Virus record (IMG/VR): IMGVR_UViG_3300018916_000001
Location: 64,001-128,000 of that record
From: a virus
Strand: one strand, 5' to 3'
DNA: 64,000 bases
Shown one piece after another: positions 34,633-63,377 of this stretch. The notes beneath the pieces are model-generated. The model had not been told where the DNA came from. It saw only the letters and a list, made by a program, of their open reading frames with translations, and made no database searches. Position 1 is the stretch's first letter; each line of letters starts with the position of its first letter. Position numbers and translations under genes: made by a program.

Positions 34633-34703
34633 AGCGAATAAAGAGGCTCGAACTCTTGACTTCTAGTTGGAAGCTAGAAATATTACCACTATACTATATT
34701 CGC
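34633..34703 (-). tRNA. trnG: tRNA-Gly(UCC)
   Basis: GCGAATA/TATTCGC acceptor, TCTAG CT-TCC-AA CTAGA anticodon arm, AAGAG TTCGAGC CTCTT T arm, U73; CCA not encoded. Confidence 0.9.
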
Positions 34704-39854: not shown

Positions 39855-40541
39855 CTAATGAATACTCCTCTCATTTTCTTTCTCCAGTAATTCTTCTAAC
39901 CAAGACTTAAATTCTTCTTTACTAAGTTCATCAAAAAACTCTCTAACATCTTTAAATTCTCTAAGCTCAGATTTAGGTGTATTGTGAAATTCTTCTATAA
40001 TTTCTCTCAAATGAGCTTGAAATTTAAAGTCATTATTTTCAACTTCATTTAACTTCTCATCAATTTCTTGTTCATTGTTTAAATCTTGTACTCCAATACT
40101 TAAGAGATAATTCTTCCACTTCTCTTCTTCTACTTGTTCTTTATAGAGTTTAGCTTTTACTATTCTCTCCGCCATTTCTCTATTTCTTAGCTGATCAGCT
40201 TCTTCTCCACAAATAGAAGAGAGTCCAGAAGGTATATGAGTTACTTGTGCGTAATACTCAACTCTAGCTGTTTTCTGGTCTTTACCTTCTTGAGTATCTA
40301 TAAACTTACATTTAAGTTCTTTTGGGTCTATATAGAAATCATCAGGTTCTTCGTATATAAGATTTTCATACTCTTGACTTTTCTCCAAAATAAGTTTGTA
40401 GATGTTAGAATCTTTACTTATTAAATAGATTATCTCTACTCCATTATCAGTAATTAGCTCTTGTACTGGTCTAAAATTATAGTCTGTTGAAAGATTAGGA
40501 TTTTTACTACTGAAACATTCTACAAATATAGTTTCTATCAT
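39855..40541 (-). CDS. Protein with a degenerate class I release-factor (RF-1) domain lacking GGQ
   Basis: IDPKELK.....EGKDQ......AQVTHIPSGL...C.E..DQLRNRE.A...VKAKL aligns to RF domain 3 (I...DLRI...SG.GGQ.VN....AVRITH.PTG....CQ.ERSQ..N...A...L.ARL). Confidence 0.7.
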   Translation of the reverse strand: MIETIFVECFSSKNPNLSTDYNFRPVQELITDNGVEIIYLISKDSNIYKLILEKSQEYENLIYEEPDDFYIDPKELKCKFIDTQEGKDQKTARVEYYAQVTHIPSGLSSICGEEADQLRNREMAERIVKAKLYKEQVEEEKWKNYLLSIGVQDLNNEQEIDEKLNEVENNDFKFQAHLREIIEEFHNTPKSELREFKDVREFFDELSKEEFKSWLEELLEKENERSIH

Positions 40542-41395: not shown

Positions 41396-41665
41396 CTATA
41401 AATCATACATTAACTCTTCAACTCTTTCGTAACAATCATCGTAATACTTAGCTTCTCTTTCATCTACTACTTCTTCTATCTTTTCAATAACTACTCTAAA
41501 TCTTGTCCCTGTAGAAAAATCTCTAAGAAGTTTTTCAAGTTCTAGATACTCCTTTTCATTTAAAGTGAAAGCGTAAGAGATAAGTAGAGATAATACAGAA
41601 TAATTATCTGTTAACTCTTTATCTTTTATATCATCCCACCATTTTATAGTATTCAATTCAATCAT
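41396..41665 (-). CDS. Hypothetical protein
   Basis: 89-aa ORF. Confidence 0.55.
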   Translation of the reverse strand: MIELNTIKWWDDIKDKELTDNYSVLSLLISYAFTLNEKEYLELEKLLRDFSTGTRFRVVIEKIEEVVDEREAKYYDDCYERVEELMYDL

Positions 41666-42239
41666 TCTTTTCTTCTAACTCTCTTAGCTCTTTTTGTCTA
41701 TATCTAGGTAATTCATCATTATCGAAATTAACTTCATCACTGTAAAGACCCTCCAAGTGTTCCCATAAGTCAATAATTATTCTATCTTTCTCATTTTCTC
41801 TATATAAAAGCTTCCTAAATCTAGGAAACTCTTTCTTATACATTTTATAGAGCTTAAGATTATTATCAATGCTAAACTCTGTATTTACAATTCTATCGGC
41901 TAATTTAATAGTCAAAGCTGCATAATTCTCTCTAGTTTTTGGAGCTGTCTTCTCAAGTATTTCTTCTCTATTTTTACCTGGTTCATTGGTTAAATCAAAT
42001 ACCATATCTGCTACTTCACTACCAAATACTGATTTAAGAAGCTCGTAAGTAACAGGAGTATCTTCTAATGAATCATGTAACCAAGCACCAGAAAGTACAA
42101 TACCATCTTTTATACCAAACTCCTGTAAAGTTAGAACTACCTCTTCTAGATGTTTTGTATAAGGTAACTCCCCATAAAACTGATTTTTATGTACCAATCT
42201 AGCAAATAACTCTGCTTGTTCACTTAATAGCATTTTCAT
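41658..42239 (-). CDS. HD-domain hydrolase of the RelA/SpoT (Mesh1/small alarmone hydrolase) type
   Basis: A...H..Q...PY..HL..V, AWLHD.LEDT, V..LT and IKLADR..N motifs. Confidence 0.85.
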   Translation of the reverse strand: MKMLLSEQAELFARLVHKNQFYGELPYTKHLEEVVLTLQEFGIKDGIVLSGAWLHDSLEDTPVTYELLKSVFGSEVADMVFDLTNEPGKNREEILEKTAPKTRENYAALTIKLADRIVNTEFSIDNNLKLYKMYKKEFPRFRKLLYRENEKDRIIIDLWEHLEGLYSDEVNFDNDELPRYRQKELRELEEKND

Positions 42240-43701: not shown

Positions 43702-44133
43702 CTAATTCCTCTCTACTACTCTATTATCTATTTCAGTGTATATCTTAGGTGGAGGTAACAATTCCGGTACATAACCTATAACTCTTAAATCAACATTATA
43801 TTTTTTAGCATTATCGATTGTATGTTTTGTACCTTTACTCGTCCCATTCCAGAAACAAATACAGTGAGTAGCATATTTCAACATTTCAATATTTCTTACC
43901 ATTCCAGCGCTTTTACCTTTTTCCCAATCAGGTATAAATTTCTTTACTTTATAATCTCTACTTTTAGCATAAGCTTCTCCTAACCTATCTGCACCTCTAG
44001 CACCACCAGATACAATTTCTACTTCACATTCTTCTTTTAAAATTTCTTCTAGATATCTATCAACTTCTCTATCTAATAGTTCTGGATTATTAAAATCTCT
44101 AGAACCTGCAATAATCAATTTTATGTCTACCAT
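43702..44133 (-). CDS. SLOG-superfamily (YspA/DUF2493-like) protein
   Basis: IIAGSR.F, IVSGGARGAD.LGE.YA, AG..RN..M, FW.G.SKGT.H.I. Confidence 0.85.
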   Translation of the reverse strand: MVDIKLIIAGSRDFNNPELLDREVDRYLEEILKEECEVEIVSGGARGADRLGEAYAKSRDYKVKKFIPDWEKGKSAGMVRNIEMLKYATHCICFWNGTSKGTKHTIDNAKKYNVDLRVIGYVPELLPPPKIYTEIDNRVVERN

Positions 44134-44579
44134 TGTTTACCACTTTTATTGTAATTAACTAATTGATAATGAATATTCACTTGTTCTAATAGTTTATCAA
44201 TGTACTTCTCAAAAGAAGCTCTAACTCTTTCTATATTCTGTCCTTTAAAAGTAGGAGCTGCCATATTAGTACCAGGTAAACTACCTATTAATTTTCCAGA
44301 ACTATCTTTACTAACTCTTAATTTAAAGTCTTTATAGGTAAGAATTATACTATTGCTTTTCTCTAACTCTTTCTGTTTCTCATAGTATTCCTTTAAGCCT
44401 TCATCTACTTTCTTTTCAAACACTTCTCTTAATTCTTTTACGGTTACTCCAGATACATCGTAATAAACACCACTAGCTACAGGAAAATATTTATTCTTTC
44501 TAATTCTTCCTATTAAATAATCATCAGAATGAACATAAACATCTAAAATAAAACCTAGATACTCTAATGTATTACTCAT
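44127..44579 (-). CDS. Tandem HicB-N-like domain protein (2 domains)
   Basis: LEYLGF...LIGRI...G.TVKELREVFEKKVD and LTYKDF...LIG.L....TFKGQNIE.VRASFEKYID. Confidence 0.65.
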   Translation of the reverse strand: MSNTLEYLGFILDVYVHSDDYLIGRIRKNKYFPVASGVYYDVSGVTVKELREVFEKKVDEGLKEYYEKQKELEKSNSIILTYKDFKLRVSKDSSGKLIGSLPGTNMAAPTFKGQNIERVRASFEKYIDKLLEQVNIHYQLVNYNKSGKQW

Positions 44580-45494: not shown

Positions 45495-45528
45495 AAAATT
45501 AAAGACTCCCTAATATTAGTAGAGAGTC
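45495..45528 (-). promoter_or_regulatory. Terminator-like hairpin that also occludes the SD of the XRE gene
   Basis: GACTCTCTA CTAATAT TAGGGAGTC TTTAATTTT ATG on the - strand. Confidence 0.5.
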
Positions 45529-45549: not shown

Positions 45550-45702
45550 TTACTTAGTCTTATCATTAAAACCAAAAATATCCTCGTAGTTTTTAGCAGC
45601 TTTCTTAAGCGATTCATTAGGTTCGGGTGAGTTTTCTATAATTTCCCATAGTTGTTCTGCATCTTCTCTACTCAACCTAATAGACTTACTAGACTTTTCC
45701 AT
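45550..45702 (-). CDS. Unannotated 50-aa DUF1778/TacA-type antitoxin C-terminal half (no RHH domain)
   Basis: MEKSSKSIRLSREDAEQLWEIIENSPEPNESLKKAAKNYEDIFGFNDKTK matches I.LS..D...F...L.NPP.PN..L..AA..Y. Confidence 0.75.
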   Translation of the reverse strand: MEKSSKSIRLSREDAEQLWEIIENSPEPNESLKKAAKNYEDIFGFNDKTK

Positions 45703-45805
45703 TTTTGGAGTTCGAGCAATTAGATTAAACTTGAGAGCTGTACGAGCTAACTATTGTCTAAATCCCATAATAAGTATCTCCTGTAAACGTTATATTTTAC
45801 TTCTA

Positions 45806-46270
45806 CTAATTACTATTTCTAAGATATGTACAATACGTTAACTCCTCTCTAGTTTGTTGCCTACTTAATATCCACTTACTATAATCAATATTCAAGTAAC
45901 AATCTCCAATAAAAGATCTATGTATATGAGTAATCACCATCATATTCGCCAAAGGTAAAAATAATTCATATATAGTTTTACCACCTATAACCCAAAAATC
46001 CCTATTAGTTTTTATTATTTCTTCTACACTTTTAGAAATTTTAACTTGAGTATAGTCTAGACTGTTCAATTTAGAACTTAAAACTATATTAGTTCTTCCT
46101 TTTAAAGGTTCTGAATTTAAATCATGTAAAAAGGTAGTAGCTCCCATGACTACTGTAGAATTAACGGTTAGTTCCTTAAATCTTTTTAAATCTTCGGAAT
46201 AATACCAAGGTAACTTGTTTTTATTACCTATTACATTGTTGAGGCTAATAGCACTAATTAGCTTTATCAT
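45806..46270 (-). CDS. folA: Dihydrofolate reductase
   Basis: N.VIG..NKLPW...EDLK.FK.LT, VMG..T, PL.GR.NIVLS, WVIGG..IY, GD.Y. Confidence 0.95.
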   Translation of the reverse strand: MIKLISAISLNNVIGNKNKLPWYYSEDLKRFKELTVNSTVVMGATTFLHDLNSEPLKGRTNIVLSSKLNSLDYTQVKISKSVEEIIKTNRDFWVIGGKTIYELFLPLANMMVITHIHRSFIGDCYLNIDYSKWILSRQQTREELTYCTYLRNSN

Positions 46271-47192
46271 AACCCCCTACAACGGTCAACGGAATGATAA
46301 TTGCGTCATTTGGTTTATAATTACTTATTTCAAAATCTTCAAATACAAAATCAGTTAAATAGTTTTGCCCTTTATCTTTCATATTTAGCTGTGGAAAAGG
46401 ACTAGGAGTACGCTCTAATTGTTTTTGCAGTGGTTCAATCTGGTCGGAATATATGTGAACATCATCTAACATAACAATCAACTCTCCTGGTTCATAGTTA
46501 CAACATTTAGAATACAGATGAGTTAATAATCCGTACTGAGCAATATTAAACCCTAGTCCCGTACCTATATCTGAACTCCTAAATTTAACACTTAGACTTA
46601 ATCTACTATTAGATACATTTACTGTGTAAGTGAAACCACAAGCAGGTAGTAATACACTCTCCCTACCACATTCATCTGCCATTGAGTATACTTCTTCTGG
46701 ATTCCAATAACTAACCACATAACTTTTTCTGTCTGGGTTTTTCTTAATACTATCAATTACCCATTTAGTTTGGTCTAAATAACCAGAATCAAATCTCCAT
46801 TTAGTGCTATTACTGTAATGGGTTGGAATAGTGAACACTTTACGTTTTAGTAAAATTTCTTCTACAAACTCTTCTAAAGAGATATTAGAATCAATATAAT
46901 TTTGTTGGTAGTATTTATATGCAAATTCATTCCAAATGTTTACTCTTTGCTGAGCTAGTTCTGCTACATTATTAGTTCCAGATAAAAACCATAGTATTTC
47001 TTTAAATGCGCCTTTCCAGAATAGTTTCTTAGTTGTAAGAATAGGAATACTATGGTTAGCCAGATTAAATCTAAGTAGCCTTCCAAATACAGAAAGAATA
47101 TATTTGTCTTCTACTCCATAAATAGCTTTTTTAGTACCATTAATCAAAACATCTCTAATTAAATCTAAATACTGCTGTTCTTCTAAATTCAT
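46254..47192 (-). CDS. thyA: Thymidylate synthase (divergent)
   Basis: P.LTTKK, E.LWFL.G, IW, LPAC, RS.D..G..FNIA.Y, D.HIY; adjacent to folA. Confidence 0.9.
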   Translation of the reverse strand: MNLEEQQYLDLIRDVLINGTKKAIYGVEDKYILSVFGRLLRFNLANHSIPILTTKKLFWKGAFKEILWFLSGTNNVAELAQQRVNIWNEFAYKYYQQNYIDSNISLEEFVEEILLKRKVFTIPTHYSNSTKWRFDSGYLDQTKWVIDSIKKNPDRKSYVVSYWNPEEVYSMADECGRESVLLPACGFTYTVNVSNSRLSLSVKFRSSDIGTGLGFNIAQYGLLTHLYSKCCNYEPGELIVMLDDVHIYSDQIEPLQKQLERTPSPFPQLNMKDKGQNYLTDFVFEDFEISNYKPNDAIIIPLTVVGGYDKAN

Positions 47193-60617: not shown

Positions 60618-61513
60618 CAGTTTTGTTATCCTAGTGGCTTTTTATCCTCTAGTTCTATAGATTCTCTATTCTCTATAGCTCGGCGTACCTTTTCATCTTT
60701 TTACGGATGCCCTGCACTCTTGGAGCTACACCAAAAAAGTATAGGAGAAAATTTTCTCGGATTATATTTTTTGTAAGTTATGTCTTTTAACTGCCCTTCT
60801 AATAGTATCTTCGTGAACTCCAAGAAGATTTGCAATTGCTTTCTGTGATAGTTGCTGAGCAATATAAAGTTCCAAAAGAATATCTTTGGTAATTTTACTG
60901 CTTCTATCTGGTAGATTATGTTGTTTTGGTCTAGTAATACCATACCTACTAACAACTTTTTGAATTTGGTATCTAGAAACTTTATATAAGTGGGCTAGAT
61001 GTCTAGTGGAGTGACCTTTAAGATACAAATCAACAACGTTAACAATTTCACTTTCAGGTAATTCTAGAGGTTTTCTCCTCCATTTTTGACCACCTGGACA
61101 TAAATTGTAACCTTTTGCGATGGAGTCGTATAATTGTATATAAAACTCCTCACGCTGATTTAGTTGGTCTAGAGATATAGACTCTTCTAGCACCTCGAAA
61201 TAAAATTTATCTTTACCGTATTTAGCAATTGCTCTACTTATTATTTGGGAGCGATTAGTTTTTAGCAGCTTTAGATGCTGCTTAAATCTTTTTACAACAG
61301 GCTGTATCGTCTGACCAATGTAGACTTTACTATTTATTGTATTTCTAATAATGTAGATACTACCTGTTTCAGTTTCCATAACATAATTTACAAAAGTTCA
61401 CCCTCTACGCTCTACGGTGTCAAAAGCATATTACCTCTTCTGATTACCACGGGATTAGCAATTCACAGCCTTCCCCGTTTTTGCAAGGTTTTTTAATTGA
61501 GGCAATATTATTT
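60618..61513 (-). mobile_element. Group I intron (896 nt) in nrdJ
   Basis: The 5' exon ends in U (GGT|) and pairs with GCC in P1; P3 CCTTGC/GCAGGG; P4 elements ACGGGGAA/AATCCCGT; P7 GAGCGTA/TACGCC; terminal G at 60618. Removal restores CG|EI. Confidence 0.92.
60762..61379 (-). CDS. Intron-encoded GIY-YIG homing endonuclease with C-terminal HTH modules
   Basis: GSIY.I.N..N.KVYIGQT...RF..H, E..YI..YDS...GYN...GG, followed by two HTH-like units. Confidence 0.92.
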   Translation of the reverse strand: METETGSIYIIRNTINSKVYIGQTIQPVVKRFKQHLKLLKTNRSQIISRAIAKYGKDKFYFEVLEESISLDQLNQREEFYIQLYDSIAKGYNLCPGGQKWRRKPLELPESEIVNVVDLYLKGHSTRHLAHLYKVSRYQIQKVVSRYGITRPKQHNLPDRSSKITKDILLELYIAQQLSQKAIANLLGVHEDTIRRAVKRHNLQKI

Positions 61514-63193
61514 ACCACAATTGTGCGTAACTACTCCTTCTACTACTCCCCAATTAGTAAGCGGTTCAGTAAAATCATAAACTTTAGCTACTCCTGAAGG
61601 TTTTACAGATATAACAAATGGATTTTCTTTTTCTTTATCAAAAGATTGTAGAGTCTCCATTAATAAAAACTCAGCAGCTACTTCTCTATCATCTGATGTT
61701 AGAAAAATATGGTCGAGTGTACAATAAATCTTCTTATCGTTAGAAAGAGTAAGTTCTACTGTTTCTTTTACCCCTGTTTGCCAAACCTTAGATTCACTAA
61801 TATCTCCATTAGGATTAATGATATTAAACGTCTTTCCTTCTAACTCCTCTAGTGTTTTATAACCTTCTGTAGTGAGCAAGTTCGCATCTCCTCGGAGGCT
61901 AGGATTTAAACCGTAACGACGAATCCTATGTTCTAGCTCTCTACCATCCATCTCAGGAGATAACTCTTTTAAGTAATTAGCTCCTTTCCTAATAGAAGTT
62001 ACATAAGCATTAATAAACTTTTTCTTCTTCTTCGGAGTATCTAATAAATCTGCATTTGCCCTTGCTACTGCTTCTGGTACATATTGAATGGCTCCTTCTC
62101 CACTATAAAATTGCTTTCTAACAGCTTCAATAGTAGTTTCTAAATCAGGTTTAACGTGATAGCTAACAGTTAAATTAGCCATTCGCAACATATCTCTTTC
62201 GGGGTCTACTTTCCAATTCCCTTCTTCATCTTGAATCCATAAACCTAACTTAGCATTAGTAAAGTTTTCATCATCTGGACTTCCTTGATGCAAAAGTGCT
62301 GACCTTCTTATATCAGCTACAACAGTGATAACACCTGCAATGTCTAGTAATTTACAGCACTCTAGACTATTTAATCCTCTACCTGCTGCCTTAGTGATAA
62401 TATTAATCATATCAAGTAGACCAGAAATCAACTTATCTGGATTACTTAATCCTCCAAAGCTCTTAAGAACTTTCCCTTTAGGTCTTACGTAACTTGCATC
62501 TATTCTAAAATTAATTTTTTTATATTTATAATCTTTTGGAAAATCAGAATAATCTACACCCCACGTCCCAATATTAGAATCTAGTAAATAAGTAGAACTT
62601 AGTTCTAGTAAATCAGTTGCCATATCTACCCAACCTTCTTTACTATCTCCAACAATATAATTAATACCTAACGTATCATCATCGATTTTCCAAGTTGAAA
62701 AACTACTATCATCAATACTATTTCCTTCTACCCAATTTGTTCCTAACTCTGTAATCTCTACTACTTCAATAGGATATTTAATACTAGGTAAGTTTTCAAT
62801 TACCTGTTCTTCAACTACTGTTCCAACTCCACATCCCATCAATAAAGCCCGGAAGTTAAATCTAAACGCTTCCCAGCTATCGACAGGTACACTAGCACAG
62901 TTATAAGCACCGATAAAATTCTTCTGCTGTTTAACCCAATTAGTTCCTCCAATCCAAAACCAACGTCCAGATACAAAAACAATATTTCTATAAAAATACT
63001 CTCTTATTAATCTTAATTCATCATCAGTTAGCAATTCAAAATCTTGTAGTCCCTTAATTGCTCTATCTTTAGCTTCTAACGCAGTTTCCTTAGTTCCATC
63101 TAATGATGTTCTAGAGTAACTTCTAAGAAAGAGAGGATAAGCAGTGTTAGCTTTAAAATCAACGTTTTTAGGTAGCTTCATATTTTTAGTCAT
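61514..63193 (-). CDS. nrdJ: Class II ribonucleotide reductase, exon 1 (contains an intein)
   Basis: RSYSR, SGR.FW.GGT, YNC, LMGCGVG, VGDSKEGW, VRP.G..LK.FGG, IRRSA, RMAN, SGEGAIQ, YGLNP. Start taken at ATG 63193 (track start 63226). Confidence 0.95.
61520..61900 (-). mobile_element. 127-aa mini-intein (Ser1 ... His-Asn, +1 Cys), no endonuclease
   Basis: NP|SLRGDANLL; block B CTLDHIFLT; block F VYDF; block G VVTHN|C. Confidence 0.92.
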
Positions 63194-63377
63194 GTTCTGT
63201 ATAAAATTCGTAAATAATAAAATCAATATATTTAGTAAGGTCTAGCTCAGTTAATTTCTTAACTACATAATCTTTAGTTGGATAAGCAGTAAAACCATCT
63301 TTTACACTTAATTGCTGTAACACAATCATTATTCCTTCTTCTCGTCCTGTTTGAAAATAACTAAGTGTTCTATCCAT
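63186..63377 (-). CDS. Hypothetical protein
   Basis: 63-aa ORF overlapping the nrdJ start. Confidence 0.5.
   Translation of the reverse strand: MDRTLSYFQTGREEGIMIVLQQLSVKDGFTAYPTKDYVVKKLTELDLTKYIDFIIYEFYTEHD

Follow-up and report, generated by a model that had tools for sequence, protein, structure and literature searches.

The 50-aa open reading frame (ORF) described here lies in a 64,000-nt window, bases 64001-128000 of a 151,199-bp IMG/VR virus record, and matches the C-terminal, neutralising half of TacA/DUF1778 antitoxins. Among type II toxin-antitoxin families, DUF1778-GNAT pairs are one of the largest, and what they do for the cell is still a matter of debate. We see about an even chance that the ORF, as what is left of the C-terminal portion of a small phage gene, would serve as an orphan, antitoxin-like counter-defence against a host GNAT toxin. 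The matches of the ORF to antitoxins, its interrupted frame, the gene family in related phages and the distribution of the module in bacterial and viral loci are presented below, together with the explanations that compete with this one. Feature coordinates are collected in Table 1.

The ORF matches the toxin-binding half of DUF1778 antitoxins

An original prediction, made without database searches, had placed a 50-aa ORF at this position, likened it to the neutralising half of DUF1778 antitoxins and proposed an HMM search against that family. The ORF is present and contains the peptide quoted at the time, and the public gene call P0001 is exactly the same 50-aa protein, annotated PF08681. The Pfam model PF08681 (TacA1/DUF1778) matched it with 28.9 bits (E 1.1e-6), above the curated gathering cut-off of 21 bits, and ORF residues 5-40 aligned only with positions 44-79 of the 80 model positions, i.e. 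with the C-terminal half. In a PDB sequence search, most of the top matches were chains of DUF1778 antitoxins (AtaR, TacA, KacA and 1y9b), always over their C-terminal ~35 residues, among them the 46-aa chain of the AtaR C-terminus found in entries 6gtq and 6gtr. We take these two entries to be complexes of that chain with AtaT, which would show that this half can bind alone.

A profile built from the phage family described below recovered the AtaR C-terminal fragment from the PDB (6gtq_C, E 2.9e-4), along with other DUF1778 chains, also at their C-termini; the only PDB relatives of the module found with this profile were DUF1778 antitoxins. Comparison of the phage family with 56 canonical antitoxins by hhalign gave a probability of 99.1%, pairing family columns 24-64 with antitoxin columns 67-107; the accompanying E-value is inflated, the bacterial sequences having been collected by means of a pattern derived from the phage motif. 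Taken together, the Pfam, PDB and hhalign matches bear out the proposed homology. Residue-level alignments to the C-termini of AtaR, TacA, KacA and 1y9b showed that the toxin-wrapping element, made of a strand, a helix, a PPxP loop and a second helix, is present. In KacA, strand 52-56, helix 57-70, PPAP and helix 75-86 wrap the toxin and form the high-affinity contact (PMC6698736). An Atlas look-up returned only short TacA1-like bacterial clusters, with a lead-level score of 0.81, and neither PADLOC nor PHROGs yielded a meaningful match for the small protein.

Table 1. Coordinates of the features discussed, numbered from the first base of the window
Feature	Position	Strand	Remarks
TacA/DUF1778 C-terminal toxin-binding module (by homology)	45583-45690	minus	Residues 5-40 of the 50-aa ORF; betaB-alphaC-PPxP-alphaD element of KacA/AtaR
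50-aa ORF	45550-45702	minus	ATG start; stop within coordinates; first ATG-started frame past the TAG
Ancestral full-length frame, 72 codons and stop	45550-45768	minus	Starts with the conserved 22-residue N-terminal segment; interrupted at codon 6
In-frame TAG, codon 6	45751-45753	minus	TGG (Trp) in 5/5 relatives
Strong AGGAG Shine-Dalgarno	45778-45782	minus	Serves the upstream ATG at 45768; kept in 6/6 phages
Sigma-70-like promoter match	45794-45821	minus	Just upstream of the small gene; consensus match only, not above shuffle expectation
25-nt hairpin	45504-45528	minus	9-bp stem with one G.U pair, 7-nt loop; invariant in six phages but for one loop base
XRE-family HTH_3 protein, 286 aa	44634-45494	minus	N-terminal HTH, beta-rich middle, C-terminal helical bundle; constant downstream neighbour
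DHFR gene	45806-46270	minus-strand block	Flanks the 50-aa ORF opposite the XRE-HTH gene
tRNA-Gly(UCC)	34633-34703	minus	Sole tRNA gene of the 151-kb genome

A longer ancestral frame is interrupted at codon 6

The 50-aa ORF is the downstream part of a longer frame, whose ATG lies 66 nt 5' of the ORF start. At codon 23 of this frame the window carries the ATG with which the ORF begins, where relatives have GTA or ATA; this internal ATG is present in no relative and falls exactly at the border between the N-terminal segment and the TacA-like module. No Shine-Dalgarno (SD) site was found before it. Past the TAG the frame is intact, with no further stops or frameshifts, and its protein is 85-87% identical to the nearest relative. 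Because of the TAG at codon 6 and the ATG at codon 23, we read the 50-aa frame as truncated and perhaps rescued. With the canonical frame closed at codon 6, the internal ATG is left as the only start from which the module could be made.

SD-less initiation would not be unusual in this genome, since an SD-like site was found at only 55 of its 135 long ORFs (by a crude ORF and start call). Recoding or suppression of the TAG was considered and is unlikely: TAG is an ordinary stop that ends 37 of the 135 long ORFs, the sole tRNA is Gly(UCC), and no suppressor tRNA was found in the genome. Given a nonsense codon in a conserved frame and an internal ATG without SD site, the window copy may not be expressed. 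The 50-aa frame could be rescued by its new internal start, could be a dead allele, or could result from a one-base assembly error.

The gene is conserved in related phages

A gene of 61-68 aa is conserved at the same place in five related phage contigs (L002/L004, L006, L014, L015 and L016). All family members start 22 codons further upstream than the 50-aa ORF, behind AGGAG or AAGGAG, with an N-terminal segment (M-K/G-L/F-K/R-Q-W ... R/C-T-A-L-K-F-N-L ...) that is well conserved and to which nothing in DUF1778 corresponds. In a comparison of the six phages, pN/pS came to about 0.1-0.5 for the TacA-like part and to 0.1-0.8 for the N-terminal segment. The indels were all in frame, so we consider the family gene to be real and both of its parts to be coding. 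The N-terminal 22 residues are under purifying selection. The gene is retained in the six phages though the neighbouring HTH protein has diverged down to 33% identity.

The module itself varies among the relatives. The Pfam TacA1 cut-off is passed by L006 and L014, the match of L016 is weak, and L002 and L015 have no TacA1 match on record; within the motif, L002 is missing four residues after PN and L015 the NPP loop. AlphaFold2 (AF2), run on a shallow alignment, placed three helical stretches where they were expected with low confidence (pLDDT 58), a value as would be expected for a peptide that folds on binding. No longer relative of the 50-aa ORF came out of a word-based search. Of the original description of a minimal antitoxin peptide, the RHH-less TacA tail stands; the 50-aa form is no minimal peptide by design, as the family form is longer and has its own conserved, non-RHH N-terminus.

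The RHH half and a GNAT toxin are absent

The original prediction had also noted that the ORF has neither an RHH domain nor a GNAT gene nearby, and both statements proved correct. The ORF and the DHFR gene lie only 103 nt apart, a gap too short to hold an RHH domain, and the frame upstream of the ORF gave no alignment to the RHH part. The hhalign comparison covers family columns 24-64 only and leaves the RHH half without a match in the phage family; likewise, with a profile of canonical antitoxins the alignment was confined to positions ~48-93. As for the toxin, its absence extends to the entire record. Three Pfam GNAT models gave no match over the whole 151,199 bp and were positive in 14 of 14 control genomes, and a profile of 68 TacT-like toxins found no GNAT in the genome or in the five related phage loci. 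The gene downstream of the small gene encodes an XRE-HTH protein without GNAT similarity. A hidden GNAT toxin in this protein was considered and rejected, as hhalign against the 68 GNAT toxins gave 0.2% and Foldseek matched the HTH domain alone.

The module accompanies GNAT toxins in most bacterial loci and lacks them in most viral ones

Using a single genome for each prokaryote species, we searched for the core motif and counted GNAT toxins within 2.5 kb. An alignment of 11 diverse short homologues was too variable for this purpose, and a narrower one was used. The prokaryote scan gave 80 loci from many phyla, with the RHH half in 70 of the 80 proteins and a GNAT toxin (68-toxin profile) near 73. 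Of 68 bacterial ORFs 150-210 aa long whose start coincides with the antitoxin stop or follows it closely, 67 matched GNAT Pfam models. The same motif scan of IMG/VR returned 36 loci in 14 protein clusters, and only four of these loci had a GNAT toxin within 2.5 kb. A single viral cluster is canonical, with RHH, and the toxin accompanies four of its five members; the other 13 have the C-terminal module only, with no RHH and no toxin. Among them are short peptides (55-80 aa, some of which have a zinc ribbon), larger proteins (135-494 aa), a DNA methyltransferase that ends in the module and a group of membrane proteins of ~460 aa. The difference between 73/80 and 4/36 loci corresponds to a Fisher p of about 1e-17, for loci that are not independent, and the contrast persists at the cluster level. 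It fits a toxin-less, phage-borne toxin binder.

RHH-less mini-antitoxins were also found directly before a GNAT toxin, in L021 (Abditibacterium, 61 aa), L009 (68 aa, metagenome set) and L039 (81 aa). Because such proteins adjoin GNAT toxins naturally, the half alone can plausibly act and serve in a bona fide pair.

Several other settings of the module were seen in the course of these searches. In phages, it lies mid-protein (~residues 290-345) in a membrane protein of ~455-471 aa (L105, L108, L113-L116, L118, L121, L123, L125-L128, L131 and L132), forms the C-terminal tail of a 347-aa protein that looks by eye like a DNA methyltransferase (L107:1574-2614), and follows a zinc ribbon, also assigned by eye, in 80-aa proteins (L117/L119/L122:2369-2608). 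Orphan TacA-tail genes of 63-72 aa with no GNAT within 2.5 kb occur in Flavobacteriales MAGs (L045:969-1184 and L059:2414-2629) and in Mesorhizobium (L040:2435-2623); these three may be prophages or phage contigs binned into MAGs. In L007 (903-2155), a 52-aa RHH-less TacA-tail gene is next to a PemK toxin pair and is followed directly by a PLD-like/SNF2 helicase gene, a context resembling a defence island; no GNAT was found on this short contig.

A HMMER search over 1.8 billion representatives found short and tandem-module proteins as well. The metagenomic proteins P0003, P0008, P0013, P0006 and P0007 match the TacA C-terminal module in two to five places, with five in the 1202-aa P0007, and Pfam found no domain other than the TacA module in P0003, P0006, P0008 and P0013. 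Such proteins could be multivalent toxin binders. The only other match of the first viral scan, a 182-aa phage protein (L003:2391-2939), has a look-alike stretch (LWEIIEN-LPPP) ahead of a Fis-type helix-turn-helix recognised by eye; its homology is doubtful and it was not used.

The small gene precedes a hairpin and an XRE-HTH gene

The order small gene, hairpin, XRE-HTH gene (275-287 aa) is constant in all six phages, and the pairing with the XRE-HTH gene is real. The genes that flank the trio vary, with DHFR or dUTPase upstream and a HicB-like gene, a 69-76-aa ORF or YAcAr downstream, and the intergenic sequence on either side of the hairpin differs among the six phages. The 25-nt hairpin sequence is unique within the window. 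The GGGAG ribosome-binding site of the HTH gene lies within it, and a U-rich, terminator-like tract comes next; because of its single G.U pair, the hairpin pairs fully only on the mRNA-sense strand. From this arrangement, the hairpin looks as if it sequesters the GGGAG of the XRE-HTH gene, with a terminator-like appearance.

The AF2 model of the HTH protein was of moderate confidence (pLDDT 64) with a confident C-terminal helical bundle, and in Foldseek only the HTH domain matched known folds, resembling SinR, HigA and C-protein. The small protein, represented by a 63-aa relative with an alignment of six rows, was co-folded with the XRE-HTH protein (eight rows); the score of 0.01 speaks neither for nor against an interaction.

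The ORF lies in a phage genome that is probably complete

The record has a G+C content of 31% and carries portal and other phage genes. Because its two ends overlap exactly over 127 bp, as a circularly closed assembly would give, the genome was treated as complete, which it probably is despite a CheckV estimate of 49%. The cultured phages nearest by portal protein infect Pseudanabaena, at only about 27-28% portal identity, and no relative of the 50-aa peptide or of the 12-kb region was found among GenBank phages.

The minus-strand block around the ORF encodes ThyA, a CYTH protein, a YAcAr/SLOG protein, Dam, DUF4326, an HD_4 hydrolase and an RF-1-domain protein. Upstream of the small gene, ThyA and DHFR (45806-47192) stand where the relatives (L002, L006 and L014-L016) have a dUTPase; in L002, L014 and L016 there is also a ThyX (Thy1) gene on the downstream side. 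Modules for thymidylate synthesis have thus been exchanged at the cassette border. Downstream of the small gene, on the same minus strand, are a HicB-like PHROG match (E 2.9e-5, 44127-44579), a stand-alone HD_4 (alarmone-hydrolase-like) protein at the Pfam cut-off (41658-42239) and the RF-1 feature (39855-40541), which may form a cluster of antitoxin-like or translation-rescue genes. Elsewhere in the window (61508-63226, minus), a fragment of a B12-dependent ribonucleotide reductase has a weak match to an intein splicing domain.

Proposed mechanism and competing explanations

By analogy with the solved antitoxin-toxin complexes, the predicted partner of the module is a host GNAT toxin of the TacT/AtaT type, onto which it would fold. 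The bound toxin would be held as an inactive monomer, with binding of acetyl-CoA and aminoacyl-tRNA blocked, and translation would continue during infection. The phage would supply the module free of autoregulation and without the toxin and, in this genome, would make it from the internal ATG only. The original prediction of an inhibitor of this kind agrees with the DUF1778-tail homology and the absence of RHH and GNAT; the gene never stands alone, however, the hairpin and the XRE-HTH gene always following it. A simple toxin trap does not account for the conserved N-terminal segment or the fixed XRE-HTH pairing.

Gly-tRNA(Gly) is the substrate acetylated by most of the GNAT toxins that have been tested (PMC9177977). 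That the sole phage tRNA is a tRNA-Gly may be a coincidence or a second line against the same toxins. As circumstantial support, this tRNA gene and the antitoxin-like or anti-stress neighbours (HicB-like, HD_4 and RF-1) fit the toxin-inhibitor reading.

It is quite conceivable, if short of probable, that the window copy is a dead allele, in which a change of TGG to TAG at codon 6 left the 50-aa ORF as an untranslated remnant with an ATG that arose by chance, in a family whose gene may be functional. Trp at codon 6 and an SD-led start in five of five relatives argue for such a loss, and the window keeps the SD and ATG but stops after five codons. The ATG at 45702 has no SD site, though SD-less starts would not be unusual in this genome; TAG is a normal stop there, with no suppressor tRNA, and may itself be a one-base sequencing or assembly error. 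A rough estimate in favour of the dead allele gives a chance in-frame ATG within the 19-codon stretch, at the observed ~10% divergence, a probability of about 0.1; against it, this ATG falls exactly at the border between the N-terminal segment and the TacA-like module. The remaining frame, intact and close in sequence to the nearest relative, also speaks against decay.

We find it unlikely that the small protein acts on its XRE-HTH neighbour instead, either as a modulator or anti-repressor, as SinI does on SinR, or as the detached peptide half of a two-part regulator whose expression is coupled by the hairpin. Such a partnership would account for a gene order that is constant while the flanks vary, for a hairpin that holds the ribosome-binding site of the HTH gene and for an HTH domain of the SinR, HigA and C-protein kind. 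However, the TacA-like module is specifically a toxin-binding element that goes with GNAT toxins in bacteria, the HTH protein has no GNAT-like part, and the module occurs in 12 other phage architectures without this HTH gene. Gene order is moreover broadly conserved in this phage group, so the adjacency may be inherited rather than functional. Still less probable is that the likeness reflects no more than a short motif that recognises something else, in which case the NPPEPNE-type helix-loop-helix would be a general peptide-binding or adaptor element of phage proteins. The very different viral proteins that contain the motif (~460-aa membrane proteins, a DNA methyltransferase, zinc-ribbon proteins and proteins of 150-500 aa), the tandem copies in the five metagenomic proteins and the bacterial orphan copies without a nearby GNAT (L040, L045, L059, L008 and L007) would be in keeping with it, but the match spans ~40 residues and passes the curated Pfam cut-off, its only PDB relatives are DUF1778 antitoxins, and a GNAT toxin adjoins 73 of the 80 bacterial occurrences.

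The reading as an orphan antitoxin-like counter-defence can be extended, as a tentative generalisation, to a wider one. At least 13 RHH-less architectures were seen, and these range from peptides of 55 aa to membrane proteins and a fusion to a methyltransferase. On this wider reading, many kinds of phages might carry the detached TacA/DUF1778 module as a portable GNAT-toxin trap, and GNAT toxin-antitoxin systems might be a widespread, unnoticed anti-phage defence; in the phages described here, the trap would have gained an N-terminal helix and been wired through the hairpin to an XRE regulator. If phages repeatedly keep the toxin-binding half only, GNAT toxins probably threaten phage replication. 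A testable direct link between tRNA acetylation and anti-phage defence would follow if this is true, and the phage peptides would be natural minimal inhibitors of GNAT toxins. For this window alone the significance is modest, as it adds one more phage TacA tail with a broken canonical frame. In our literature search, no paper showed that DUF1778-GNAT systems restrict phages or described phage-borne TacA tails, and neither an anti-phage role nor a phage inhibitor was found for tRNA-acetylating GNAT toxins.

Comparison with known systems

The small phage protein resembles the DUF1778 antitoxins TacA, AtaR and KacA of GNAT-RHH type II toxin-antitoxin systems (PF08681; 6gtq, 6ajm, 7ak9, 7zg5, 5zgn and 1y9b) over their C-terminal ~40 residues. 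Unlike them, it has no RHH DNA-binding and dimerisation domain and no adjacent or distant GNAT toxin, and its family has a conserved 22-residue N-terminal segment of its own, which is lost from the only open frame of the window. The bacterial mini-antitoxins of L021, L009 and L039 are closer in form, being small proteins with essentially the same C-terminal module, but they are encoded directly upstream of, or overlapping, a GNAT gene, and the phage gene is not. With SinI, encoded like the phage protein directly upstream of an HTH_3 regulator (SinI-SinR, PDB 1b0n), it shares the layout of a small protein predicted to be helical; it has no sequence similarity to SinI and contains a clear TacA-type module.

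Orphan antitoxins have a precedent as phage counter-defence in T4 Dmd and in the DarG-like proteins of T4-like phages and chimalliviruses (PMC11257639, PMC13309987). Like Dmd, which acts against RnlA/LsoA, and the DarG-like proteins, the phage gene comes without a toxin, is related to or mimics a host antitoxin and is a presumed neutraliser. It differs from them in that its putative targets are tRNA-acetylating GNAT toxins and in that it keeps only a fragment of the antitoxin. What distinguishes the gene described here is its clade-specific N-terminal segment, its nonsense codon and its hairpin/XRE cassette.
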